This document shows positions 8,012 to 56,881 of a stretch of 64,000 bases of DNA, piece by piece; the first letter of the stretch is position 1; each line of letters starts with the position of its first letter. The notes beneath the pieces are model-generated. The model saw only the letters and a list, made by a program, of their open reading frames with translations. It had not been told where the DNA came from and searched no databases. The stretch comes from Croceivirga sp. (GTDB lineage Bacteria; Bacteroidota; Bacteroidia; Flavobacteriales; Flavobacteriaceae). The translations under genes were made by a program, and so were the position numbers. The stretch spans positions 3,091,119 to 3,155,118 of the forward strand of contig OZ246014.1 in NCBI GenBank assembly GCA_965230555.1, given 5' to 3'.

Positions 8012-9130
8012 TTATGAGAACATATCTTTTACCTTTTCAAAGAAGGATTTGTCAGATTTTTCTGGTTTTGGAGCAAAGTTTTCATCGTTTTGCATACGCT
8101 CAAAAAACTCGCGTTGCTCTTTGTTCAATTCCTTTGGGGTCCATACATTTATATGGACCAATAGGTCCCCGCTTCCATAACCATTCAAACTTGATATGCC
8201 CTTGCCACGTAAGCGCAAAATTTTTCCTGACTGTATCCCCGATTCCAGTTTGATACGAACCTTGCCGCCAACGGCATCTATTTCCTTGGAGGTTCCCAAC
8301 ACTGCCTCGGACAAACTGATGTAGAGATCGTAATGGAGGTTATCCCCTTCACGTTTTAATGTGGAGTGTTCCAAGGTCTCTATCGCCACCAATAAATCGC
8401 CAGGTATTCCCCCATTTCCAGGGGCATTGTTTCCTTTTCCAGAGACTTTTAACTGCATGCCCTCTTCTACACCTGGTGGTATCTTGATGCTCACGGTTTC
8501 CTCTACCGTAACCATGCCTTGGCTATCTGCCCCAGCGGGTTTTCTGTCAATAATCTGTCCAGAGCCCCCACAAGTACTACAGGTTGTGGCCGTTTGCATA
8601 CGACCTAGAATGGTATTGGTGATCTTGGTGATCTGACCACTACCGTTACAAGTAGGGCAAGTCTTGTAGGTTACCCCTTCGGCCTGTATCTTTCGCCTTA
8701 CCTTGACCTTCTTTTCAACGCCGTTGGCAATCTCTTCCAAATTTAATTTTACCCGAATACGGAGGTTGCTGCCCTTTACCCGGCGTTGGCCTCCACCGCC
8801 AAAGCCTCCAAATCCGCTAAAACCACCGCCAAAAGCACTGCCGAAGATGTCACCGAACTGGCTAAAAATATCGTCCATGTTCATGCCTCCACCACCAAAA
8901 CCACCGCCTTCAAAAGCGGCATGGCCAAACTGGTCATACTTGGCCCGCTTGTCTGGGTCGCTCAACACCTCATAAGCTTCGGCTGCCTTTTTAAACATCT
9001 CTTCGGCCTTGGTGTCTCCCGGATTTTTATCCGGATGGTATTCCAAAGCCTTCTTGCGATACGCTTTCTTGATCTCCGCTGCCGAGGCCCCTTTTGAAAC
9101 CCCCAATATTTCGTAGTAATCCTGTTTCAT
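8012..9130 (-). CDS. dnaJ: Molecular chaperone DnaJ
   Basis: J domain with [11 protein letters not shown]-rich linker, CPTCNGSG and CSTCGGSG motifs, C-terminal substrate-binding domains. Lies directly downstream of grpE. Confidence 0.95.
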
Positions 9131-9139
9131 GGTGTTGTA

Positions 9140-9733
9140 TTAGTTTCCTACCACCACTTTTGGGTGTCTTATAATTCTATCTCCCAACTTGAATCCCTTC
9201 TCTACGACATCAATGATTTTTCCCTTCATCTTTTTTTCGGGAGCGGGAATCTGGGTGATCGCATCGTGTATCTCTGCATCAAAAACATCGCCTTGCCCAA
9301 CTTCTATCTGCTCCAAACCTTTGCTCTTGAGCGTATCCTTTAATTTGTTGTTGATGAGTTCCACACCTTTGAACATCTCTACGTCTTCGCTTTTAGACAG
9401 TTCTTTTAAAGCCCTGTCAAAGTCATCCAATACCGGTAACAATGACACCATAATGTCTTGCCCGGCAGTCTTGAACAGTTCTACACGTTCCTTTGATGTT
9501 CTTTTCTTAAAGTTTTCAAATTCTGCGAACAAACGCAAAAACTTATCCTTTTCTTGTGCCAAATCTTCCCGCAACTGCTCTTCTTCACTTTTTTCTTCCT
9601 TGTCAGCAGATTCATCACTGCCAGAGTCTTCCATGGTTTCCCCTGTTTTTGACATTTCTTCTTCTGGAGTGGTCTCTTTTATTTCTTCAACAGCGTCTTC
9701 GGCCTTTTGTTTTTTGCTCATTTTTCGATGCAT
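9140..9733 (-). CDS. grpE: Nucleotide exchange factor GrpE
   Basis: Acidic N-terminus, coiled coil (FLRLFAEFENFKKR), C-terminal beta domain (HDAITQIP...GFKLGDRIIRHPKVVV). An alternative start MSKKQK lies at 9721. Confidence 0.9.
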   Translation of the reverse strand: MHRKMSKKQKAEDAVEEIKETTPEEEMSKTGETMEDSGSDESADKEEKSEEEQLREDLAQEKDKFLRLFAEFENFKKRTSKERVELFKTAGQDIMVSLLPVLDDFDRALKELSKSEDVEMFKGVELINNKLKDTLKSKGLEQIEVGQGDVFDAEIHDAITQIPAPEKKMKGKIIDVVEKGFKLGDRIIRHPKVVVGN

Positions 9734-9751
9734 TTATGCGATTTGAAGTGG

Positions 9752-9759
9752 CAAAAGTA
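9752..9759 (-). promoter_or_regulatory. Bacteroidetes-type -7 box TACTTTTG upstream of grpE
   Basis: Exact TAnnTTTG on the minus strand, about 20 nt upstream of the grpE ATG. Embedded in the palindrome TGGCAA-N5-TTGCCA (9749-9765). Confidence 0.5.
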
Positions 9760-9801
9760 TTGCCAATCCATGTAAAATGTCAAAATGTCATTCAAAAACA
9801 T

Positions 9802-9846: not shown

Positions 9847-10806
9847 TTAGGCACATCCATTCTCTGTTATCCCATTGACTACTATTTTATCGCTTTCCGA
9901 ACCATATATCGCTTCCAAAGCACCGCAAATATTGACATGGTTGAATTTAAACCCAAAGTTTTCAATTTTTTTACTGCTCACCCGCTGGCTGGCCAATATT
10001 ATGTAGGACATTTTGCCCAATACCATTCGCAATATAAATTTTGGAAGATTGGGGAGAATTAAAGGTCGTGACAACACCTTGGCCAATTCTTTGGTCATTT
10101 TGGCGTTGGTCACCGGATTAGGTGCCGTTGCGTTATAAACCCCGTCCATACCATTTTCAATAATATAGCTGAACATCCTGGCCAAATCGTTGACATGGAT
10201 CCATGATTGCCATTGTTCCCCCGATCCCAAGGCCGCGCCGATAAAATTTTTTACAGGAAAGGCCATTTGAGGCAAGGCCCCTCCTTGACTGGAAAGTACC
10301 ATGCCTATCCGTACTTTGGCCAACTTTAGGTCAAAGACCCCAAAAGCATCGGCCTCTTTTTCCCATGCTTGGACCACCTCACCAAGAAAACTGGCATCCA
10401 CTCCTTTAAAATCTTCGTCATATAACGTAGATGGGGAGTTGGGGTAAATCCCTATCGCAGAAGCTGTGACCATGGTTTTGATATTGCTTCCACCCACTTG
10501 CAGAAGCCCTTTTCTTAAGGTGGAAAGACTATTGATCCTACTGTTGAATATCTCTTTTTTATAAGCCTTGCTCCATCGTTTGGCAATGCTGGCCCCGGCC
10601 AGATTTATAATGGCAGCGACCCCTTCAAAACACTTTAGGTCAATTTCATTCCTTGTGGGATTCCATAAAAATCCTTGATAGTTTTCTTGGGAGGAAATCT
10701 TTGTTTTGCGGGTAGTCAAATAATTGATCCCATATCCCTTTTTATGTAATTCTGAGACTATTTCATGGCCAACCAAACCGGTGGCACCAGTAACCAACAC
10801 CTTCAT
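9847..10806 (-). CDS. TIGR01777/YfcH-type NAD-dependent epimerase-family oxidoreductase
   Basis: N-terminal Rossmann motif VLVTGATGLVG, about 300 aa, and a C-terminal extension typical of the YfcH (DUF1731) group. Confidence 0.7.
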   Translation of the reverse strand: MKVLVTGATGLVGHEIVSELHKKGYGINYLTTRKTKISSQENYQGFLWNPTRNEIDLKCFEGVAAIINLAGASIAKRWSKAYKKEIFNSRINSLSTLRKGLLQVGGSNIKTMVTASAIGIYPNSPSTLYDEDFKGVDASFLGEVVQAWEKEADAFGVFDLKLAKVRIGMVLSSQGGALPQMAFPVKNFIGAALGSGEQWQSWIHVNDLARMFSYIIENGMDGVYNATAPNPVTNAKMTKELAKVLSRPLILPNLPKFILRMVLGKMSYIILASQRVSSKKIENFGFKFNHVNICGALEAIYGSESDKIVVNGITENGCA

Positions 10807-10922
10807 CGCTTCATTTTTTTATAAAATTAAAGGATTGAAATACACCTATTTTGGCCGTTGGCATAGGTTTAACAGATCTACTGGGGTTTTGGGAGATTTT
10901 TAAAACGCTATAAATGTGCTCG

Positions 10923-11594
10923 TTAACTTTTTGTTTGCTTTTTGCCCACGAGCATCTCGCGTTTGCCCGGGGGTCCGGGCAGGCGCTCCACTTTAAAGCC
11001 CACCGATTGCATGGCCCTCCTTACACTGCCCTTTGCCGAATAGGTGGCCAACACCCCACCTTCCGTTAAAGCGGCGTACATTTTACCAAAGATGGCCTCG
11101 GTCCACAGTTCTGGTTGTACCCGCGGCCCAAAGGCATCAAAATAAATCAAGTTGAACATATTGCCAAACTGTATATCGATAAAATCCATCTGGAGTTTGG
11201 TCAATTCAAATTGATTGGAAATTTCAATCCTTTTGGCCCATTCGCAGCCATGCAATTGATCAAATACATGCTGATGCGCCTTGGCATCCAAGGCATCCAC
11301 ATAATTGAGTTGTTTTAATTCTTCCTGCTCGACCGGATAGGCCTCAACCCCAACATAATCTATGTGAATTCTGAACCTTTCTGCCTCCAAATAGGTGATA
11401 AAGGCATTGAGTCCCGTACCAAAGCCCATCTCCAAAATACTGACATCACTAGATTGACAAAGCCGCAGGCCATGCTTTATAAAAACATGGTAGGCCTCTT
11501 GAAGGGCCCCATGCTTTGAATGGTACTGCTCGTTCCAATCTTCCAGTTGAATGGTTGTTGAACCGTCTGCCGTGGTAATTACCTTACGCCTCAA
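10923..11594 (-). CDS. mnmD: tRNA (mnm5s2U34) methyltransferase MnmD-type (stand-alone MnmC methyltransferase domain)
   Basis: SAM motif ILEMGFGTGLN, DAFGP...PELW motif, about 220 aa. Confidence 0.75.
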   Translation of the reverse strand: MRRKVITTADGSTTIQLEDWNEQYHSKHGALQEAYHVFIKHGLRLCQSSDVSILEMGFGTGLNAFITYLEAERFRIHIDYVGVEAYPVEQEELKQLNYVDALDAKAHQHVFDQLHGCEWAKRIEISNQFELTKLQMDFIDIQFGNMFNLIYFDAFGPRVQPELWTEAIFGKMYAALTEGGVLATYSAKGSVRRAMQSVGFKVERLPGPPGKREMLVGKKQTKS

Positions 11595-18387: not shown

Positions 18388-19806
18388 TTATTTTTCTATA
18401 ACCCCATACCGGGCAGTGTCCAGATATTTAGCTATTAACTTATTGAACTCAGGAGAGACCCGCAAAAGGGCGGTATGCTCAATACTGTAGAGTTGGTCCC
18501 TATCCTTATACCCTCTTTTCAATGCTTCTTCCAAATAGAACAATGCCGTACCGAAATCTTCGTATTTGGAACTCATCGATATGACATCAAGGTAAAACTT
18601 GAAATTTTCAGGTTCGGTAATGGTCTTTAGCATTGAAAGAAAAATGACGGCCTCATCATCAACCTCGTCTTGGGTATTGACCATGTCCAGATTATCATCA
18701 ACCAGGGCATTGACAAAGCCAACCAAACGTCTGCCCATTTGCCGTTGGCTCTTGTTTTCACTGTCTACAAACTTCTGCAACTCTGCCATTTGATAGTTCC
18801 ACCAGCCCAGATTACTGTAATTGAATGTAGCCAGATCCTCTTCAAGGGCAAAAAGATAGTCTTCTTGCAAAAAGCTTTCCTTAAAGCGTGCTGCATCTTC
18901 CTCACGCTTTTTTATCCTATAAAGTTTTGATTTTTTTAATTCCTTTTGAGCATTCTCTATGGAATCTACAGCTATTAAATCCCGAAAAGCATTTTGCATT
19001 TCTGTTAGTTCCCTATAGGCCAGGAGTTCTTTTTTTTCATTGAGCAATTGCTGTACATCGGCAATACCCCGTTTCAGGACTTTTTCAATATAAACAGTGT
19101 CCTTTTCCGCAAAACCCCTTGCCATTGCCCTAAGCGTAAAATAATGAAGGGCCTTGCCCATATACGCTTCCGGAGGCCATTGTTTGCCCCCATCAAAAAC
19201 CAGAATATTGTTATCCAGTTTAAGCCTGTTGAACATCGCTTCTGTCTCCAAGACTTCCGGGTAGCTAAAGTCTTCTTTCCCCACAATCCCTATAAAGTGA
19301 AATGGGGATTTTTTAGAAATCATATCAGAATTAGGTATGGCCGCACCACAGGAAACCACACCTTCAATGCTCTTGAACACTAAGGGAGCTACATTTGCCA
19401 AACGGGCTCCATTGTCAAACCCAGCAGCATAGACACGACCTGCATTTATTGGCAATAATTTTTCTAGCTTGGTCAAAAGCCTTCCTGTGCGAACCATATT
19501 CTCGGACAAGGAAAGTGAATCATGAATAGCATTTGAGGCCACCAAAATATACCCCTGCTCTTCTGCGTGTTTGGAAAAAAACGATACCGCCTGCTTTCCC
19601 CTACCCTTGGGATCAAACACAACCAACAAAGGCCATTTGCCCTTATTCTCAAACTTTGTGGGAAGAAATAACGAAAAACTTTCAGGAATCGAGTCCAAAA
19701 CTGGCATTGAGTCTATAACCACTCCTTTTTTTAATCGCATTTGTTGGCTGAAAAGCAATGTTTGAAAAAAGCCAACTACCAGAATAATCAAAATTTTTCT
19801 CGCCAT
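18388..19806 (-). CDS. Secreted hypothetical protein: N-terminal esterase-like alpha/beta fold plus a C-terminal helical (TPR-like) region
   Basis: Signal peptide; WPLLVVFDPKGRG...AAGFDNGA resembles carboxylesterase/PHB-depolymerase-type hydrolases. The C-terminal 230 aa are helical. Confidence 0.45.
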   Translation of the reverse strand: MARKILIILVVGFFQTLLFSQQMRLKKGVVIDSMPVLDSIPESFSLFLPTKFENKGKWPLLVVFDPKGRGKQAVSFFSKHAEEQGYILVASNAIHDSLSLSENMVRTGRLLTKLEKLLPINAGRVYAAGFDNGARLANVAPLVFKSIEGVVSCGAAIPNSDMISKKSPFHFIGIVGKEDFSYPEVLETEAMFNRLKLDNNILVFDGGKQWPPEAYMGKALHYFTLRAMARGFAEKDTVYIEKVLKRGIADVQQLLNEKKELLAYRELTEMQNAFRDLIAVDSIENAQKELKKSKLYRIKKREEDAARFKESFLQEDYLFALEEDLATFNYSNLGWWNYQMAELQKFVDSENKSQRQMGRRLVGFVNALVDDNLDMVNTQDEVDDEAVIFLSMLKTITEPENFKFYLDVISMSSKYEDFGTALFYLEEALKRGYKDRDQLYSIEHTALLRVSPEFNKLIAKYLDTARYGVIEK

Positions 19807-35325: not shown

Positions 35326-35363
35326 CCCCTTTAAACTTTTTACAAACTCTTTGATTACGGTAA

Positions 35364-35520
35364 GACCCTTCGGCAAGCTCAGGGTAAGTTCTGCCACAAT
35401 TTTCGCTGCATTGCATTTGCGGAAATTGGACGGTACGTTCACCAAAACCCCTACAGACCCTTCGGCAAGCTCAGGGTAAGTTCTGCCAACAATTTTCGCT
35501 GCATTACATTTGCGAAAATC
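35364..35520. repeat. Two about 64-bp direct repeats (35364-35427 and 35456-35519), each with two hairpins
   Basis: GACCCTTCGGCAAGCTCAGGGTAAGTTCTGCCA(A)CAATTTTCGCTGCATT(G/A)CATTTGCG(G)AAA occurs twice, about 95% identical, with a 28-bp spacer. Confidence 0.85.
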
Positions 35521-35529
35521 GGGCATCAC

Positions 35530-38878: not shown

Positions 38879-38977
38879 ATTGGAATTTTGGGCAAAAATA
38901 GGGAATTGAAAAGGAGGAATTAAAAATTGAAATTTAAAAGTGTAAAATGCTTATTTTACATCTATCAACCATAAAAA

Positions 38978-39748
38978 ATGAAAGCAAATACCATCTTACT
39001 ACCTTTTTTGGCATTCGTGATTTTCAGTTGCAAAAACCATAATCAAGAAAACCCCCAAACTTGGCACACCAAGCAAAAGGCCATAGCGAACGAAGTGCAC
39101 AACCAACTGTTGGGCATTGAAAAAGAACAGGGCTGGCAGTTACTGTTTGATGGCAAAACCCTTAACGGTTGGCATTTGTACAACAAACCGGATTCCACCA
39201 AATTTTCTGCATGGAAGGTGCAAGACGGCATGCTTTTCTGCAACGCCTCCGATGAAAGTAAGATCCATGGCGACTTAATCACTGACACCGAGTTTACAAA
39301 CTATGAACTGTACTTTGAATGGCGAATCCCGGATCGTGGCAATAGTGGCGTATTCATCAACGTACTGGAAAAACCGGAATTTGCCAACACCTACCAAACC
39401 GGGCCGGAATACCAATTGTTGGGTGCCGGCCATATGGATTATGGCGTGCCCACCAAAAGACCCGGTTGCCTGTATGGTTTTCTGCCCCTGCAAAGCGTGG
39501 CCGAAGTAAAGCCTTTGGGGCAATGGAACACTTCCCGCATTGTACAACAAGATGGCAAGGTTGAATTTTACCTTAACGGAATCCTCACCGCCAAGGAAAA
39601 TTTTTCTTCCCCAGAATGGAGGGCCAAAATTGCTGCTTCCGGTTTTGCCGGTCAATCTGGATACGGTCGGGCTACCCAAGGTAAGATAGCCCTACAGAAC
39701 TGGTATTTTGAGGTTTGGTTCAGCAATATAAAACTCAAGGAGCTTTAA
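38978..39748 (+). CDS. DUF1080-family (3-keto-disaccharide hydrolase-like) lipoprotein
   Basis: Lipobox IFSCK; GWQLLFDGKTLNGW, NSGVF, GPEYQLL, GKIALQNW...FSNIKLKEL pattern. Confidence 0.8.
   Translation: MKANTILLPFLAFVIFSCKNHNQENPQTWHTKQKAIANEVHNQLLGIEKEQGWQLLFDGKTLNGWHLYNKPDSTKFSAWKVQDGMLFCNASDESKIHGDLITDTEFTNYELYFEWRIPDRGNSGVFINVLEKPEFANTYQTGPEYQLLGAGHMDYGVPTKRPGCLYGFLPLQSVAEVKPLGQWNTSRIVQQDGKVEFYLNGILTAKENFSSPEWRAKIAASGFAGQSGYGRATQGKIALQNWYFEVWFSNIKLKEL
39704..39748 (+). repeat. Left copy of a 45-bp direct repeat (last 14 codons plus stop of the DUF1080 gene)
   Basis: TATTTTGAGGTTTGGTTCAGCAATATAAAACTCAAGGAGCTTTAA; 42/45 identical to 46071-46115. Confidence 0.9.
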
Positions 39749-39784
39749 TCGTTAAAATATTGATCCCCGCCCACTTCAAACACC

Positions 39785-41311
39785 CTATTCCCAGTAAGGC
39801 ATAAAAGCCCCCGTAAATAAAATCTCAGAAAAAACAGAATCATCGTCCCTAATTTGTGTGCGTTGAACAATCCTCTCTGAGATATCATCATTTGAAGTCC
39901 TTACATAGATCACATAACCATCATTGGGTGCATATTTGGGATCCAAATCGTTTTGGCCAGTTGGTTTTTCTGTATCCAACTCCTTTGATTCGCCTGTTAG
40001 GAAATCGTACTGAAAAATTCGGTTGTCCAACCTCCTGTATTCTTCATTTTCTACGCCAGATACATCCCTTGAGTATAAAAGCCGATTTCCATCCAATGAA
40101 AAATCCAACCCATCAAAAGCACCTGCCACACCTTCAATCAAAACCTGTTCTCCAACACCAGTTTCTGGATTGACAATTCGAATTCGCACATTGTACCCCT
40201 CTACATCATTTGTCTTTAGTGCCAATAAACCCGATACCGGGTTTACCGCAACCTCAGAAATAAATTCACCACTTGGCGTTTCATAGACCAACCTATTGGC
40301 AGAACCATCAAGACTAATTTCATACAACCTATTAAAATTGGGATAGAAAATTTTGTTTCCTTGCTTATTCCAAGCAAATTCAATTTCATCCAATTTAAAT
40401 CCAGCGATTTGAGTAGATTTTGTCAGTTGTTGCTTATTGGTCCCATCAAAACCCATCAGGAAAATATGGGATTCACTGCCATCAAACCCTATATAGGCAA
40501 TCTTATTTGCCGTATTGTTGGCCTTTGGCCTAAATGAATTTTTATTGTTTTCCGTTAATTGTACAACATTTTGGTTTATATCTTCTTCCAACGGCCCCAG
40601 TGGTTCATTGCCCGAAAAAACGGCCTGATTATCATTGGTGCTTTTTACAAAAAAATAACGGTTGTCACTTACCCCTTGAACCGTAAAGCTTGAAAGTTCA
40701 CTCAATACCGTGGCATTCACACCATCATCTGCGGTAATTTGCCAAAAATATGTTTTGCCTATCTCCAAAGCGCTTACGGTAAAAGTCGTATCTGGAATCT
40801 CTTGAAAAAACTGCGTCGCTCCTTGTTCCCCTTGTCTTAATTCTAGCGCATACTCAATTTCGTCATCATCATTTTTTGCCGAGGTCCATAAAAATGCAGG
40901 AGATCTTTCCACCCCCAAAGCCCCATCTTCTGGAAAAAGTAAGATTGGCCGTTTTGGCAAGAGATTATCTGCTTCCAAACTGTCCAATTCTATAACAACA
41001 CTCACCGTATTCCCTTCTAAGATGTTCGCCGGTTCAAACGCTGTTTTATACTCCTTCTGCTCGGCTTGTACCGAATATTCCCCAACACTTATTTCATCAA
41101 TACTAAAATCCCCATTCACATCGGTAAAAACAGTGGTTGAGGCAGGGTTGGTGGTAATCTTTACATTTTCTATCGGGGTGTTCAACCCTTTGGATACCAC
41201 CTTGCCTTCTAATTTTCCAGTTTCCAAATCACCAATTGTTTCCTCCTCGCATGAAACTGACCATATAACAATAAAGGCCAATACCAATTTGTAGATCTCT
41301 TTAAAATGCAT
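39785..41311 (-). CDS. Lipoprotein with a carboxypeptidase-regulatory-like domain, an Ig/FN3-like domain and a TolB-like beta-propeller; last gene of the curli-type operon
   Basis: Lipobox WSVSC; GKVVSKGLNTPIENVKITT...TDVNGDFSI; W-x-x...TYFWQITADD module; C-terminal PD40-like repeats. 11-nt overlap with csgG. Confidence 0.6.
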   Translation of the reverse strand: MHFKEIYKLVLAFIVIWSVSCEEETIGDLETGKLEGKVVSKGLNTPIENVKITTNPASTTVFTDVNGDFSIDEISVGEYSVQAEQKEYKTAFEPANILEGNTVSVVIELDSLEADNLLPKRPILLFPEDGALGVERSPAFLWTSAKNDDDEIEYALELRQGEQGATQFFQEIPDTTFTVSALEIGKTYFWQITADDGVNATVLSELSSFTVQGVSDNRYFFVKSTNDNQAVFSGNEPLGPLEEDINQNVVQLTENNKNSFRPKANNTANKIAYIGFDGSESHIFLMGFDGTNKQQLTKSTQIAGFKLDEIEFAWNKQGNKIFYPNFNRLYEISLDGSANRLVYETPSGEFISEVAVNPVSGLLALKTNDVEGYNVRIRIVNPETGVGEQVLIEGVAGAFDGLDFSLDGNRLLYSRDVSGVENEEYRRLDNRIFQYDFLTGESKELDTEKPTGQNDLDPKYAPNDGYVIYVRTSNDDISERIVQRTQIRDDDSVFSEILFTGAFMPYWE

Positions 41312-42707
41312 TTTTTGGTCTATATTTAGTTATACTTTTTCCTAGTTTTATTTCAAGGCCCAGGCCAAAATTGTAATAAAAATCATCTCTTTTGCCATTG
41401 ACCACATTATCTACAGCATCACTTGTTGTAATGTTGTTCTCGGCAAAAACAGTGAGAAACGTTTTCTTTCCGACCCTATATTTTAAGCCGAGGCCGTACT
41501 GCAGGTTTATTCCGGATGTAGATTCACTTAAGCCCGGTTCTTCAGATCTAATGTCTGCCAGCCATCCTGCCCCTACATACACCGTTGGGGAAATCCTTTC
41601 ATAAGGCAACATGTGGTACTTTAACTGAACATTCCCAGCCATATACTCCTTATAAAAACCATTGCCAGAAGTAAAATAATGGTAATCCCCAACAATGCCG
41701 GCACTCCAATAAGGTGAAACAAATTTTTGATACCCCAATCTAAATCCAGCCCCCATACTTTTATCTGAAAAATCTCCATTGAACAGTGGTGAAGATAAAA
41801 ATGCGGTAACGCTCTTGGGGTGGTATTCATAATTCTGGTTCCTATTGAACAATAGCCTTGATTCTTCCTCGGCTTTGTTGGCCCTATACATTTCAACCAA
41901 AGTCTCGTCTAGCCGTCCGCCCTCTTTGGATTCCCATAGCCCTCCTTCTATTCCTTCAATGATCAATGCCTCTACCGCATTCTCAATGGCGCTTTGTATG
42001 GCCAACTGAATAGGCTCGTTCTTGGTAATTCCTGTTTCCACTTCCAACAATCGTTGAAAATTCACATACCGAAACAAACTCGCATCCAGCGCCTGCGACA
42101 ATATAGTTTTGGAAACGTATACGGTCTTTAAAATCTTACCATTTGAGGTGGATACCGCACGCAGGTATATGGTAATACGGTCTTGACGGTATTGGGTAGA
42201 TCCCCCTACCCCAAAATACCTTGCCCCATACCCCCCGGTAATTATATTTGAATCGTATGATATGATCCCCCCTTCCAAGAGTATTCCGGCAAAAAGTAAG
42301 GGCGGCAAATTGGGCTGTCCTTTTTGTGCCCCTTCATATTCTGTCCTTGTGGATCGTATGATGTTTCTTTCATTGAGGAGATTGGAAAGATTTTCGCGTT
42401 CTATGGGCGTAAACCATTTACTGTCCTCCAAAGCTTTGATCAACATGGTTGTTGCCCCTTGGGGAACGGCCGTGCTAAATGTGCTGCCGTTTTCTACATT
42501 CTTGTATTGTCCCGTTTGATCCTTAAAATTATAGACCCCCACCACAACGGGCTCTTTAGGTTCGGGCAAGCTTCGTAAAGATTTGGTGAAGGGTGTTGTT
42601 TCTCCCGTGCGTGGTGGCATAACGGTTGTTGGCTGGTTAAAATACGTTCCACAACTACCACACAATGCTACACTTACAAGCAAAAGCGCTTTTTTAAGAT
42701 ACTTCAT
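41301..42707 (-). CDS. csgG: Curli secretion channel CsgG homolog with a C-terminal ~200-aa beta-barrel extension
   Basis: Lipobox LCGSC. VGVYNFKDQTGQYK, STAVPQGATTMLIKALEDSKWF, LSNLLNERNIIR, GGYGARYFGVGGSTQYRQD and GITKNEPIQLAIQSAIE match E. coli CsgG blocks by eye. Confidence 0.85.
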   Translation of the reverse strand: MKYLKKALLLVSVALCGSCGTYFNQPTTVMPPRTGETTPFTKSLRSLPEPKEPVVVGVYNFKDQTGQYKNVENGSTFSTAVPQGATTMLIKALEDSKWFTPIERENLSNLLNERNIIRSTRTEYEGAQKGQPNLPPLLFAGILLEGGIISYDSNIITGGYGARYFGVGGSTQYRQDRITIYLRAVSTSNGKILKTVYVSKTILSQALDASLFRYVNFQRLLEVETGITKNEPIQLAIQSAIENAVEALIIEGIEGGLWESKEGGRLDETLVEMYRANKAEEESRLLFNRNQNYEYHPKSVTAFLSSPLFNGDFSDKSMGAGFRLGYQKFVSPYWSAGIVGDYHYFTSGNGFYKEYMAGNVQLKYHMLPYERISPTVYVGAGWLADIRSEEPGLSESTSGINLQYGLGLKYRVGKKTFLTVFAENNITTSDAVDNVVNGKRDDFYYNFGLGLEIKLGKSITKYRPKNAF

Positions 42708-42727
42708 TAAGTTATGATTAAGGGCAA

Positions 42728-43123
42728 TTAATTGGGTATGATGATCTGGGTCTGTTCTCCTGTACCCGTATCAAGAATGTTTACCACCAAACCCTCTGAT
42801 GACTCAAAAATCTCCAACAACAATTCCCCAACAGTGAATGTACCGGGCTCAAGTGCTTCGCCCAGTTGGGAATCAAAGACCGAACGGGTAAGGCGGCCCA
42901 ATACCTGGCGGTTTAGGCTTTCCTGAAACTCCTCCAATTCTGAGCGCTCGTTGTTAAAAGAACTGCTCTCTTGAAATGAATTTTGGGCATTGGCAGAACT
43001 CAACAACCACTGGTAGTTAAAGGTATTGCCACCAAAGTTTGGGTTCTTTGGACTATATACCAATTGTTGCCCATAGCTAAGGGAACAGCAACATAAAAAA
43101 GAAAAAAGAAGGATCGCTTTCAT
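42728..43123 (-). CDS. csgF: Curli assembly protein CsgF homolog
   Basis: 131 aa, signal peptide. YSPKNPNFGGNTFNYQWLLSSANAQN compares with E. coli [26 protein letters not shown]. Confidence 0.8.
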   Translation of the reverse strand: MKAILLFSFLCCCSLSYGQQLVYSPKNPNFGGNTFNYQWLLSSANAQNSFQESSSFNNERSELEEFQESLNRQVLGRLTRSVFDSQLGEALEPGTFTVGELLLEIFESSEGLVVNILDTGTGEQTQIIIPN

Positions 43124-43126
43124 AGG

Positions 43127-43888
43127 TTAGTATTTAATTAAATCTTGTTGAACGGCCCTATTCTGTCTAAAATAATAGTTTAACCTAGATACAGAATTCA
43201 TGGCCATGTCCTTTAAATAAGTGGCTCTCGGATTCACAAAAAATTGACTTACCAAATCGTTGCCGGCAAAAATCTTGATCATGGTATTGCCCCCAATGGC
43301 AAGCTCTTCGGATATTTTTACAATTTTTTCCCCATTTATGTTCTGTGCATTGTACTCCAGAAAGAAGTACTGATAAAAATCCCTTCCGGGTTTTGTCTTG
43401 GTATCTTCCACAACCACCCCCTGCATTAAGTTGACTTCGTTTTGGGTAGCCTTACTGATATTTTGTTGGTTTTGCCTCTTCACAGATGGCAGTGTACCAT
43501 CTTCCCCATCCATTCCATTGATCACTATACGGTCTTTGCCAATGGGTTTTCCTTCATCATAAACGAGCAAAAAGACAATAATTCGTTGATTGTCCTTGGG
43601 TATGATTTTAGCACTTGTGAGATTAATTTTCTCGTTGGGTTTTAAAACAAAAAAGTCTTTATGTTCAAACTTTTCTTCGGCTAGATTGGCCGTAGCCTTT
43701 TTAATGATCTTGGATTCATAATCCAAACTCTTGTCTATCTGCGTTTTGTTGAAGGCAGAAAAAAAAATTTCATACACCTCTCCTTGGACCTTAACATCTA
43801 TTTTGGCCTCTATATCTGCATTGAATATCTGGGCCAACACCAAGAACGGACACATTAAAAAAAATAATGGCACAACGCTTTTGAACAC
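43127..43888 (-). CDS. csgE: CsgE-domain protein with an extra ~140-aa N-terminal domain
   Basis: C-terminal GVVVEDTKTKPGRDFYQYFF...IKIFAGNDLVSQFFV compares with E. coli CsgE GLLTDHTVSSIGHDFYRAF...ITVNQDVIFQTFL. Signal peptide present. Confidence 0.65.
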   Translation of the reverse strand: MFKSVVPLFFLMCPFLVLAQIFNADIEAKIDVKVQGEVYEIFFSAFNKTQIDKSLDYESKIIKKATANLAEEKFEHKDFFVLKPNEKINLTSAKIIPKDNQRIIVFLLVYDEGKPIGKDRIVINGMDGEDGTLPSVKRQNQQNISKATQNEVNLMQGVVVEDTKTKPGRDFYQYFFLEYNAQNINGEKIVKISEELAIGGNTMIKIFAGNDLVSQFFVNPRATYLKDMAMNSVSRLNYYFRQNRAVQQDLIKY

Positions 43889-43903
43889 AAGACAACCTAT
43901 TGC

Positions 43904-44413
43904 TTAGTTGGTATTTCTAATGATAACGGACTGTGAGCCGGTCATTTGTATCTTCATCTTATCTATAAGGCCATTTTGCCCATGGATCACCAAATTTTGA
44001 CCATCACCTATTTGTTCTATATCCCTTTGCAGCAGTTCCTTGTTGGCAACCGTATTAAACTCCAAGAGATAATTATTATTTCCATTTTGCAGCACAGCGT
44101 AATCTATACGGTCTGCACTCAGGGTTAAGTCTATACGGTTGGCATTGCCCCGTTGGTCCAGCACAATTCCGTTGTTACTGCCAAACGTCCTTAAATCTAC
44201 CCTGTTGCCATCACCTACCTGCTTAATAAAAGCACCTGGGGTAGCTACCGTCAAATCTAAATCGGCTTGTTCCACCAGTGTGTAATCAAGCAAATTCACT
44301 TGGGGCGGTTCCACCGCTTCCCCACTTGCTTCTTCGTTTGTTATGATGCCTTGGGCATGTACCACAGCGACAAAGAGAAAATGTAGCAGGCCTACAAAAA
44401 ATAACTGTTTCAT
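43904..44413 (-). CDS. Minor curlin-repeat subunit (CsgB-like candidate nucleator)
   Basis: Signal peptide from MKQLFF. 4-5 units of Q-x-G-x-x-N (IKQVGDGNRVDL, LDQRGNANRIDL, VLQNGNNNYLLE, IEQIGDGQNLVI). Confidence 0.6.
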   Translation of the reverse strand: MKQLFFVGLLHFLFVAVVHAQGIITNEEASGEAVEPPQVNLLDYTLVEQADLDLTVATPGAFIKQVGDGNRVDLRTFGSNNGIVLDQRGNANRIDLTLSADRIDYAVLQNGNNNYLLEFNTVANKELLQRDIEQIGDGQNLVIHGQNGLIDKMKIQMTGSQSVIIRNTN

Positions 44414-44488
44414 ATCCAAATTAAACATTGTTAAGGGTGCAGAAAGAGAAAGTTTTTCCACACCCCTTACAATTAATTACTGATTGTT

Positions 44489-45652
44489 TTATTGTCTTGT
44501 CTGTACAACGGTTGCCGTGGTCATACTATCAGCCGCAGTTTGGGTAACGGTACTTATGTTCCCATCTCCATTCTGTGTAACAGAAATCATTGCATCGGTT
44601 GTTCCCATTTGGGTTGCAATGCTACTATTGCTATTACCATTACGTTGCAAAACCTTTATGGTACTGTTTACAGTTGAAAGATCTTGTTTGGCAGTACTGC
44701 TATTGCCAGTACCATTGCGCTGATCAATATCCATATCATTATCTACACCTGCTTGAACTGTACTGGAGTAGTTACCATCCCCATCTTGGTCCACAAAGAT
44801 TTCATTGCCCACGCCACTTTGCTCTGCATAGGATTCGTTATAGACGTTACTGTTGCCTTTTTGGGTGATTTTAATGGCATTAGACTCTCCAGATTGCAAA
44901 ACGTCAGAATCGTTGGAATCCATATCTTGATCAACAGCAATGGTATTTCCAAATCCTGTTTGTTCAATATCTGAAATGTTATCAGTACCATTTTGGTTAA
45001 CAAAAGCTTCACTATTTTGTGTCACAAGACTTCCTCCATATTGGTTTACATCTGATATGTTTCGCTTGCCTACTTGATCTATATCAATAAGGCCATTAGA
45101 TCCAGTTTGGTTGACAGTTGAACTGTTCTCTCCAGGACCATTGTTTACACCGGATTGGGTTACATAAACCTTATTTTTAGACCAACTCTGCCAAACTCTT
45201 GAAAAGTTCTTGTCATCGTTTTGTCTAACCTCGGTTAAATTTTCAGTGCCTCCTTGTACATCAATTTCAGAAATATTCTCATCACCCTGTTGGACTACTT
45301 TAGATGTATTTGAATTACCTCCTTGTCTAACAAGAGAATTATTCAACATACCTTCTTGGTTTACATCAACAACAACACCATTCCCTGCTCCATTGGCGTT
45401 GCCAAAAATATTTCCTTGTGAAACAGTTGATATATTGCCAACCCCGTCTTGTTGCACCTTTGAGGAGGTAGCAACCCCAGATCTTTCAGTAACTTTAAGT
45501 TGTTCAAGATTGGATGTGTTAAGATTCCCTTTTTGAATGACCGTTGCCGACGTACTAGCCGTCGCATCTGTTTGCGTTACTGTACTCTCATTTTGAGCGA
45601 ACATAAAAGACCCCATTGCAAGTGCCATTGCACTCATGATAATTTTTCTCAT
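44489..45652 (-). CDS. Major curlin-repeat subunit (CsgA-like, about 20 repeats)
   Basis: Signal peptide MRKIIMSAMALAMGSFMFAQ, then about 20 units such as VQQDGVGNISTVSQ, VRQGGNSNTSKVVQ, VNQTGSNGLIDIDQ, VTQNGDGNISTVTQ. First gene of the operon. Confidence 0.7.
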   Translation of the reverse strand: MRKIIMSAMALAMGSFMFAQNESTVTQTDATASTSATVIQKGNLNTSNLEQLKVTERSGVATSSKVQQDGVGNISTVSQGNIFGNANGAGNGVVVDVNQEGMLNNSLVRQGGNSNTSKVVQQGDENISEIDVQGGTENLTEVRQNDDKNFSRVWQSWSKNKVYVTQSGVNNGPGENSSTVNQTGSNGLIDIDQVGKRNISDVNQYGGSLVTQNSEAFVNQNGTDNISDIEQTGFGNTIAVDQDMDSNDSDVLQSGESNAIKITQKGNSNVYNESYAEQSGVGNEIFVDQDGDGNYSSTVQAGVDNDMDIDQRNGTGNSSTAKQDLSTVNSTIKVLQRNGNSNSSIATQMGTTDAMISVTQNGDGNISTVTQTAADSMTTATVVQTRQ

Positions 45653-45832
45653 AATAATAGAATTTTTAGAAGTTTTAGAATTAAAGGTTAAAAAATATGT
45701 ATTAGCCAATATGGCCAGTATACGTACTTATTACCCATAAACTAAAAGGGGGGATAGGTTAGCTCTACATGTGCCTATTGGGGTTTGGCACATTTCTACA
45801 ACATAATCACTCTAAAACTAGAATCTTTTTGC

Positions 45833-45870
45833 AAAAGAAAAAAAAACACAAATACCCATTTTTGGGTATT
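45833..45870 (-). terminator. Terminator-like hairpin upstream of the curli operon (insulates it from yjdM read-through)
   Basis: AATACCCA-TTTT-TGGGTATT; on the minus strand it is followed by TGTG and a T9 run. Confidence 0.55.
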
Positions 45871-46070
45871 GACTTTTTGAAGAATTCATTATACATCGAT
45901 AAAAGGCATATTTTACCGTTAAACCATTCGATTTTATCGACAAAATACATTGTTAAATCTATGTAAATAAGGGGCTTGGCTCCCGTTCATCTATATTACT
46001 GGCAGATGGTCGATTGTCCAACCCGTCCTTGTTTCCAATTTTTCAAATGTATATTACCCTAAATGACTGA

Positions 46071-46115
46071 TATTTTGAGGTTTGGTTCAGCACTATGAAA
46101 CTCAAGGAGCTTTAG
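46071..46115 (+). pseudogene. Right copy of the 45-bp direct repeat: orphan 3' fragment of a DUF1080 gene (YFEVWFSTMKLKEL*)
   Basis: TATTTTGAGGTTTGGTTCAGCACTATGAAACTCAAGGAGCTTTAG. Similarity to 39704-39748 starts abruptly, with an in-frame TGA immediately upstream. It ends 1 nt from the yjdM stop. Confidence 0.85.
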
Positions 46116-46116
46116 C

Positions 46117-46458
46117 CTAAGCCTTTCGCACAAATTCAGACTTAAGGCCCATGGCGCCAAAACCATCTATCTTACAACTGATGTTATGGTCGCCATCTAC
46201 CAAACGAATGTTCTTGACCTTTGTCCCGGCCTTTACGGGTTTTGGCGCCCCTTTTACGGGCAGATCCTTGATCACCACTACAGAGTCGCCATCGCTCAAG
46301 GTATTTCCGTTGCTATCCAGAACAACGGCTTCGGGTTCTTCCAACGTGGCATCGGGGTTCCATTCATGGCCACATTCGGGGCAGGCATACAAGGCTTCCC
46401 GTAAAAAGTAACCGTAAGGTGATCCGCACTGTGGGCAGGTTTTCATTTCATCTGACAT
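46117..46458 (-). CDS. yjdM: Zinc-ribbon protein YjdM/PhnA
   Basis: 113 aa; CPQC...CPEC zinc ribbon; C-terminal [35 protein letters not shown]. Confidence 0.9.
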
Positions 46459-46519: not shown

Positions 46520-46580
46520 GGTTTTGGGTTTTGGGTTTTGGGTTTTGGGTTGTGGGTTTTGGGGTTTGGGTTTTGGGTTT
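46520..46580 (+). repeat. Tandem heptamer array (GGGTTTT)n, about 8.5 units
   Basis: GGTTTTGGGTTTTGGGTTTTGGGTTTTGGGTTGTGGGTTTTGGGGTTTGGGTTTTGGGTTT, between the EthD stop and the yjdM promoter. Confidence 0.95.
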
Positions 46581-56584: not shown

Positions 56585-56658
56585 GGCCTCGTGGCGCAAC
56601 TGAATAGCGCATCTGATTACGGCTCAGAAGGTTGCAGGTTTGAATCCTGCCGAGGTCA
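56585..56658 (+). tRNA. tRNA-Arg (anticodon ACG)
   Basis: Hand-folded cloverleaf: acceptor GGCCTCG/CGAGGTC, D stem GCGC/GCGC, anticodon stem TCTGA/TCAGA with loop TTACGGC, variable loop AGGTT, T stem GCAGG/CCTGC, discriminator A. No encoded CCA. Confidence 0.9.
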
Positions 56659-56881
56659 CTTAAAGCACAAACCCTGCATTTTTATGTAGGGTTTTGTTGT
56701 TTTAGACCATCAGTTAAATGATTTTATTTCTCAAGGTATCCGTAGTAGGGTTAGCGACAATCCCATATAAAAACTGAATTCGATATAACAAAGGAAAGAT
56801 TTTGGCTTGCTGTTTGTAATCCTCATTTCACCTCTGGTGATTCGGCCATCAAAATATTGAATTCAGGTTCTCCAATATTAA

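Follow-up and report, generated by a model that had tools for sequence, protein, structure and literature searches.

A strain-variable curli operon between two copies of a DUF1080 gene end in Croceivirga sp., possibly an old insertion scar

How did a complete curli operon come to lie between two copies of one gene end, and does it still move? The question is raised by a stretch of 64,000 nucleotides from Croceivirga sp. (contig OZ246014.1), called the window here. In it, six curli genes separate a DUF1080 gene from the convergent yjdM gene, and direct repeats of the last DUF1080 codons stand on either side of them. The original prediction read this as site-specific integration into the 3' end of a protein-coding gene, by an islet that was decayed, mobilised in trans or moved by an unrecognised mechanism. 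Part of this reading stood: the insertion scar is real, the gene end is restored and empty sites exist. For present mobility and for an unrecognised mechanism, there was no positive evidence. We see about an even chance that the locus is an old insertion scar and not an active element, left by an ancient single-crossover (Campbell-type) insertion that rebuilt the gene end and is now a gain/loss polymorphism.

The repeat finder returned a direct repeat of 58 nt (39690–39747 and 46057–46114, 90% identity, spacing 6,367 bp), which was the sole long direct repeat of the region. Pairwise comparison reproduced the 42 of 45 identical positions first noted between 39704–39748 and 46071–46115; the left of these segments comprises the last 14 codons plus stop of the 256-aa DUF1080 gene. 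The shared 22-mer TATTTTGAGGTTTGGTTCAGCA occurred at two sites in the 64 kb, even with three mismatches, and shuffled sequences gave none. As a feature, the left repeat (attL-like, 39690–39748, plus strand) has high identity in 39704–39748 and weaker identity in 39690–39703, and it carries the working tail WYFEVWFSNIKLKEL before the stop codon (..FRNIKLKEL in the related haplotype L088). The right repeat (attR-like, 46053–46115, plus strand) is an orphan DUF1080 tail, non-coding and decayed, which reads YITLND, a stop codon, YFEVWFSTMKLKEL and a final stop. The in-frame TGA directly before its high-identity part (46071–46115) lies at 46068–46070, where it had been reported. The orphan ends at 46115 and the yjdM open reading frame (ORF) begins at 46117, so the distance of 1 nt to the yjdM stop was also correct.

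The two copies were identical over their first 20–22 nt and differed only in the last ~25 nt, and their similarity ended exactly at the stop codon. Both carry the lineage-specific codons for K-L-K-E-L, where other genera have K-I-R-E-L. The similarity had been described as starting abruptly at 39704/46071. A sharp drop of identity is indeed present at 46071, but weaker similarity continues for ~13–27 nt further left: with the repeat register fixed, 9/13 nt (p ~1e-3) and 16/27 nt (p ~4e-4) match against a background of all window positions. A profile of 120 orthologues aligned the 21 codons of the orphan and nothing upstream of them. The orphan is therefore ~63 nt long and not the tip of a longer decayed DUF1080 paralogue, in agreement with the first reading.

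Both states of the site exist within one species. An exact look-up of the YjdM product led to two contigs of one metagenome (ENA ERZ25074695). The haplotypes L088 (a 2.09-Mb contig, ENA ERZ25074656) and L089 were found via members of the 90% clusters of the DUF1080 protein and of the 508-aa protein encoded by the sixth operon gene; exact look-ups of the window's DUF1080, 508-aa and AIRS proteins gave no match. The flanks of L001, L002, L088 and L089 were 98–99% identical to the window. The window, L088 and L002 (which covers the right half only) are occupied, with the same junctions, and differ from each other by 1.4–1.8% overall. As the junctions are the same in all three, the insertion predates their split. 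In L001 and L089, DUF1080 is directly convergent on yjdM, one repeat copy is present and exactly 6,367 bp are absent. These are the empty sites that the original prediction had called for.

At the left copy, the window reads CAGAACTGG, TATTTTGAGGTTTGGTTCAGCAATATAAAACTCAAGGAGCTTTAA and TCGTT in succession, and L088 differs from it by AGA (R) for AGC (S). The orphan junction of the window and L088 reads AATGACTGA, then TATTTT...CAGCACTATGAAACTCAAGGAGCTTTAG, then CCTAAG; L002 has AATAACTGA instead, plus two single-nucleotide polymorphisms (SNPs) in the core. The empty site of L089 reads CAGAACTGG, ...CACTATGAAACTCAAGGAACTTTAG and CCTAAG, and that of L001 reads CAGAACTGA, ...CACTATGAAACTCAAGGAGCTTTAG and CCTAAG. 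The two empty alleles differ solely at the G/A (TGG/TGA) position and at one further SNP. The left flank of L001 is of the empty type (39556T and 39631A, both common to L089), and its orphan-type tail and right flank are identical to the window over 168 nt. On the right flank, the empty haplotypes do not cluster together. Flank SNPs are distributed as a mosaic, with site patterns that are incompatible across the five haplotypes. This indicates frequent homologous exchange, and it means that a tree of flank SNPs cannot settle gain versus loss.

Which tail is the original one was judged from the protein family. Among 104 orthologues (56–67% identical), the tail consensus was W-Y-F-x-x-W-F-R-N-[MI]-K-I-R-E-L, and the W, the R and the N/D were invariant (104/104 each). 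The tail on the cassette side fits this consensus (WYFEVWFRNIKLKEL in L088, ..FSNIKLKEL in the window), and because of this fit it is regarded as the gene end in use. In the orphan, and likewise in the single copy of both empty sites, the tail is of the ..WFSTMKLKEL type (..FSTMKLKEL), where S takes the place of the invariant R and T that of the invariant N. Placed on the same domain body, the RNI tail scored 137.4 bits against PF06439, the STM tail 126.6 bits and the truncated form 119.8 bits. Between the left copy of L088 and the orphan, all four sense-codon differences (4/4) were non-synonymous or nonsense. From these sequences, the orphan would be the displaced and decayed original tail, its STM sequence having evolved unconstrained as a non-coding orphan. 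The single-copy tails of the empty sites would likewise derive from the orphan. The 4–5 changes of the orphan are common to all three orphans; they were thus acquired before the strains split, and the insertion is older still.

The invariant W is replaced by TGA in all three orphans, which are non-coding, and in L001. In L001, this change from TGG to TGA cuts the DUF1080 gene (10345–11114, minus strand; window equivalent 39701–39703) 15 codons early.

The tail in the empty sites is the decayed orphan one, so these sites are not simply ancestral, unoccupied attachment sites (attB). They are probably secondary, and either a deletion between the repeats or the import of an orphan flank could have produced them; deletion is the simplest route. 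L089 is the exact product of a crossover within the first 20–22 identical nt. For L001, a fitting route is import by homologous recombination, with an occupied strain as the source of the orphan-yjdM flank.

The origin that we favour can be laid out as follows. Before the event, DUF1080 would have ended 1 nt from the convergent yjdM, an adjacency still seen at the orphan and at the empty sites. As the orphan keeps the two stop codons adjacent and related genera lack curli after DUF1080, an ancestor of the species appears to have received the operon within the last 15 codons of DUF1080. The incoming DNA would have brought the whole curli operon and its own last ~15 codons and stop of a DUF1080 gene, and it would have entered by a single crossover, presumably within the first 20–22 nt of the repeat, where the copies are identical. 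A Campbell-type crossover fits because the copies end at the stop codon, share lineage-specific codons and differ only in the last ~25 nt. The product has the structure seen in the occupied strains: a rebuilt DUF1080, the operon and a second tail beside yjdM. The tail of the rebuilt gene (WF[R/S]NIKLKEL and a TAA stop) would be the incoming one, and the displaced tail the original. The original crossover could have been made by host homologous recombination on short homology or by a site-specific recombinase acting once.

Thereafter the orphan would have drifted without constraint. It now shows TGA for TGG, S for the invariant R, T for the invariant N and TAG for TAA; the 104 orthologues suggest that the changes ran in this direction. 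The result today is an islet of 6,367 bp that varies between strains, with curli-less haplotypes arising most likely by deletion between the 45-bp repeats. In L001, an empty-type left flank would have been joined to a window-like orphan and right flank by homologous exchange between strains.

Several points weigh against this origin. The comparison covers five haplotypes, all from a single species; outside it, the closest genome reaches only ~65% identity in DUF1080. No DUF1080 relative above 65% identity was present in genome species representatives or Joint Genome Institute (JGI) metagenomes, and these collections offered no sister species from which to read polarity or a donor. Neither a true pre-insertion site, with a consensus tail beside yjdM, nor a donor was seen among these sequences. 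Imports of the orphan flank could have given an orphan tail to chromosomes that never held the operon. Loss is thus likely but short of proof. The in-frame similarity left of the boundary (I-x-L, 13–27 nt) resembles the arms of an attP/attB pair and is not explained by a plain crossover on short homology. Moreover, the TGA of L001 is joined to a left flank that is not of the cassette type. This needs an exchange within 'ACTG', and a recombinase with an overlap at that position would explain it more simply. The leftward similarity and the G/A difference at the boundary thus lean towards an attP/attB-like pair, whereas the absence of a recombinase, of a sister element and of recent activity leans the opposite way.

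The search for mobility genes bore out what had been reported from the letters alone. The islet contains no integrase, transposase or tRNA, and none of the 40 large ORFs of the window matched an integrase or transposase family. Two of the 40 matched no family at all (1872–2588 and 18388–19806), and the only tRNA of the window is a tRNA-Arg at 56585–56659. Remnants of an integration or transfer module were absent from the islet, which holds six curli genes only. The cassette ends have no terminal inverted repeats (alignment score 9, compared with 9.7 ± 1.7 for shuffles), and no inverted repeat resembling a recombinase core was found in either repeat site. At the left copy, the one inverted pair joins its first 13 nt to the adjoining spacer, and no such pair exists on the orphan side. 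Neither the cassette nor the att-like sequence recurred in genome species representatives, JGI metagenomes, viral contigs, plasmids or phages, and IMG/VR contained no copy of the repeat. The locus was also rejected as a transposon or insertion sequence: it has neither a transposase nor terminal inverted repeats, and its duplication is imperfect and spans 45 nt. A connection with phages or plasmids was likewise dropped, since only distant csgG genes on Spirosoma and Hymenobacter megaplasmids were found.

The composition of the islet gave no foreign signal, contrary to what a recently arrived island would lead one to expect. The GC (guanine plus cytosine) fraction was 0.401, against 0.42 ± 0.02 in other 6.3-kb windows, and 19% of these windows exceeded the islet in tetranucleotide distance. 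A recent foreign island was rejected on the native-like GC and tetranucleotides, and because the nearest cassette is only 65% identical at the protein level. Compared with L088, the operon had 1–7 differences per 500 nt, the same as the flanks, csgA excepted. As its diversity equals that of the flanks, the operon has been resident at least as long as the strains have been diverging. The cassette looks long resident.

Of the other explanations, the one that fares best needs no circular element: the locus would be a by-product of illegitimate recombination. We consider it unlikely, even with its two routes taken jointly, but it deserves a serious hearing. By the first route, homology-facilitated illegitimate recombination would have taken place between a DUF1080-curli lineage and a DUF1080-yjdM lineage. 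By the second, a local tandem duplication of the block [tail-yjdM-EthD-PALP-curli] would have been followed by loss of the redundant copies, with the operon shifted within its neighbourhood. Both copies end at the stop codon with a different neighbour, as if each were a native DUF1080 end. The right junction shows the interrupted microhomology CCCTA.A..ACTG, where the curli leader runs up to ...AATGACTG; interrupted microhomology reportedly occurs at illegitimate-recombination junctions. The region also has other strain-specific insertions or deletions (indels). However, the two other indels nearby (SusC/D in L089 and Peptidase_M10 in L001) are without flanking direct repeats.

Each of the two routes meets a difficulty of its own. 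For the homology-facilitated route, 80 DUF1080 loci and six cassette contexts were inspected, and in none of them does DUF1080 stand natively beside curli. The DUF1080 body of L088 is protein-identical to that of L089 up to the tail, which would place the anchor crossover within the last ~20 nt. Upstream of the gene's last ~25 nt, no tract of donor type can be seen. The duplication-loss route would fit Croceivirga lutea, where the operon lies in the same AIRS...PALP-GSIII neighbourhood and orientation, on the other side of PALP, but it needs a second deletion that ended exactly at the stop codon.

The next explanation keeps the locus within the world of integrative elements. Cis-mobilizable elements (CIMEs) are defined as having lost the genes for integration and transfer while retaining attL and attR (PMC5704250), and the islet resembles a CIME in these respects. 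On this view, it would be the remnant or satellite of a site-specific integrative element with the DUF1080 3' end as its target, and a recombinase gene elsewhere in the genome would still serve to integrate and excise it. Unoccupied or excised attB would account for the empty sites, and the G/A (TGG/TGA) difference would fall within the crossover overlap, free to segregate in either direction. In favour of this, the repeats begin at a sharp left boundary and extend precisely to the stop codon, the gene being restored by the distal copy, and partly similar sequence continues left of the boundary (9/13 and 16/27). The near-identity of the two empty alleles, with the G/A position and one SNP as their only differences, and the fact that the empty haplotypes are not grouped on the right flank, point the same way. 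We nevertheless regard this as rather improbable. There is no integrase in the 64 kb and no integration or transfer remnant in the islet, the sites have no inverted-repeat core, and neither other cargo nor another copy was found, at this site or elsewhere in the collections named above. In addition, the orphan is decayed at invariant codons and the diversity of the cassette equals that of the core, both of which speak for long immobility. Against the individual marks of a CIME, the islet has the repeats, an empty site (whose single copy is of the decayed orphan type) and no integrase of its own; descent from an integrative and conjugative element (ICE), an integrative and mobilizable element (IME) or a prophage is not seen.

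More doubtful again is a functional form of the same idea, a minimal curli cassette without an integrase of its own. A recombinase acting in trans would make the crossover at ACTG(G/A), and the tail carried by the cassette would keep DUF1080 intact. Upon excision, the expected circle junction is ...TATATTACCCTAAATGACTG[A/G]TATTTTGAGGTTTGGTTCAG[A/C]AATATAAAACTCAAGGAGCTTTAATCGTTAAAAT. If this were true, flavobacteria could switch the production of amyloid fibres at the population level by site-specific gain and loss.

A last reading, in which the orphan would match DUF1080 by chance, or form the end of a long decayed DUF1080 paralogue, and be unrelated to the presence of the operon, can be practically dismissed: the slight leftward extension of weak similarity is in its favour, but it is refuted by the 42/45 identity, by a 22-mer expected 0 times, by a profile match restricted to the last 21 codons and by empty sites that lack exactly one repeat and the operon.

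Between the repeats lie the six curli-operon genes and a leader of ~0.4 kb, and nothing else, as had been stated; all genes are on the minus strand (ORFs and Pfam). A spacer of 36 nt (39749–39784) separates the DUF1080 stop from the stop of the last operon gene. This sixth gene (39785–41311, minus) encodes the 508-aa lipoprotein with a CarboxypepD_reg domain (Pfam; 138 homologues). It is preceded by the gene for the CsgG secretion channel (41301–42707, minus; PF03783, 224 bits), which has a C-terminal extension resembling an outer-membrane protein (OMP) beta-barrel (PF13505, 26.5 bits, below the cut-off of 28.7). CsgF (42728–43123, minus; PF10614, 124 bits) and a CsgE-like protein of 253 aa (43127–43888, minus; PF10627, 217 homologues) come next. 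The CsgB-like minor curlin (43904–44461, minus) was assigned from a weak Curlin_rpt match and its operon position. The CsgA-like major curlin (44489–45652, minus) has its ATG at 45652, in an ORF that is open to 45709, and contains five Curlin_rpt stretches (PF07012). The locus thus has the CsgG channel, CsgE and CsgF, and curlin-repeat subunits of a curli (type VIII secretion) system in one operon (PF03783, PF10627, PF10614, PF07012).

The leader or promoter region (45653–46052, minus strand) includes a hairpin at 45851–45870, ~200 nt from the orphan. Its perfect 8-bp stem (AATACCCA-loop-TGGGTATT) is followed by a T run, on the minus strand, and it could terminate yjdM transcription in occupied strains. 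The sixth gene overlaps csgG by 11 nt in the window. A gene of this kind, for a CarboxypepD_reg lipoprotein of ~500 aa, stands directly after csgG in every related Flavobacteriaceae operon examined (L083–L087, L090 and L091).

Within the species, the csgA-like gene is hypervariable. The window copy (44489–45652) shares 78% amino acid identity with that of L088 (5660–6823) and 33% with that of L002 (10807–12012). By contrast, nucleotide identity is 98–99% in the signal peptide, in csgB and across the remaining operon. The pattern resembles that of allelic replacement, or of diversifying selection acting on the fibre subunit.

The same cassette was sought next to other genes. No close copy was found; the nearest cassettes are 60–65% identical in the 508-aa protein. 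Related cassettes with the same six-gene order and different neighbours occur in five other genera or groups (L083/L084, L086/L087, Maribacter L090, Euzebyella L091 and C. lutea L004), and none of these five loci has flanking direct repeats around the cassette. The two adh_short genes on either side of the Maribacter cassette were considered as a duplication and discarded, being only 24% identical. In C. lutea (L004, 16397–20773), the operon is in the same AIRS...PALP neighbourhood and in the same orientation as in the window, but on the far side of PALP; its cassette was seen without the far end, and a CsgE search gave no hit assignable to this genome. DUF1080 and yjdM are separated there by ~5.6 kb of other DNA.

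The DUF1080 gene itself (3-keto-disaccharide hydrolase, 38978–39748, plus strand; PF06439, 136 bits) encodes 256 aa with a lipoprotein signal, and its 56–67% identical orthologues are found in Allomuricauda, Flagellimonas and Croceivirga. The gene order Trx-Rieske-AIRS-DUF1080 ... PALP-GSIII is common to related genera, in which curli directly after DUF1080 was not found. The convergent yjdM/phnA-like gene (46117–46458, minus strand) matches PF03831 and PF08274.

The flanks vary between strains in other ways. In L089 (3778–9020, compared with 38906–39044 of the window), a SusC/SusD pair is located between the AIRS (purM-like) gene and DUF1080, and the first ~22 codons of DUF1080 are swapped for a different lipoprotein signal peptide. 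A tandem repeat of (GGTTTTG) x 8.7, variable between strains in length and sequence, lies between yjdM and the EthD-like gene (46520–46580). Beside this repeat, L001 has an extra Peptidase_M10 gene (9077–9760, ~1 kb) that the window is without. A stretch of ~160 nt at or upstream of the 5' end of the DUF3570 gene (35363–35522) matches staggered positions in L001, L088 and L089, which suggests a tandem segment whose copy number may vary between strains.

The locus is a case, resolved to the base pair, in which a whole biofilm-matrix system (curli) is strain-variable in a marine flavobacterial species, with presence and absence in the same sample. The scar shows the route by which the segment entered and, probably, the route by which it leaves. 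The absence of the operon also has a hidden cost: curli-less strains are left with a degraded DUF1080 end, and one of them has a truncated DUF1080 gene. The locus can serve as a worked example for studies of flexible genomes, with the caution that an 'empty site' is not automatically ancestral.

Among known systems, the scar can be compared with integrative elements and CIMEs that target the 3' end of a gene, such as those of the ICESt1/ICESt3 type at the fda 3' end in Streptococcus thermophilus. As there, direct repeats flank the insert, the similarity runs from a sharp inner boundary to the gene end, genes for integration and transfer are missing inside, and empty sites have one copy. The resemblance to a CIME comes from being without integration and transfer genes. 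Unlike CIMEs, the islet is unrelated to any ICE or IME, has no module remnant and shares its site with no second element. It carries a single operon of housekeeping style and has no known cognate integrase, and the decayed orphan copy suggests long inactivity. We therefore make no claim of CIME membership; the islet works like the scar of an integrative element at a gene 3' end.

Homology-facilitated illegitimate recombination is known from naturally transformable bacteria such as Acinetobacter and pneumococcus. Its products have one junction in homology and the other at short interrupted microhomology, need no recombinase gene and can retain short duplications of recipient sequence, traits that the locus may share. 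The present locus differs in that there is no known DUF1080-curli donor and in that the crossover would be confined to the last ~20 nt of the anchor.

Islets that are lost via short direct repeats offer a third parallel. Here a segment of 6.4 kb lies between 45-bp repeats, and L089 is what a crossover in the identical block of 20–22 nt produces. The difference is that the repeats of the islet stem from the insertion itself and not from a pre-existing repeat family.

The curli operons of Bacteroidetes comprise csgA/B-like genes, csgE, csgF and csgG without csgC or csgD, and mostly vertical inheritance has been inferred for them (Dueholm et al. 2012, PMC3521004). The operon of the window has the same gene set, also without csgC and csgD, and vertical inheritance fits an old resident operon. 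It departs from this type in being a presence/absence polymorphism within a species, with a defined scar, in the sixth CarboxypepD_reg gene that is conserved in these Flavobacteriaceae, and in a CsgG with an OMP-barrel extension. Taken with these systems, the scar is of a familiar kind and calls for no new mobility mechanism.

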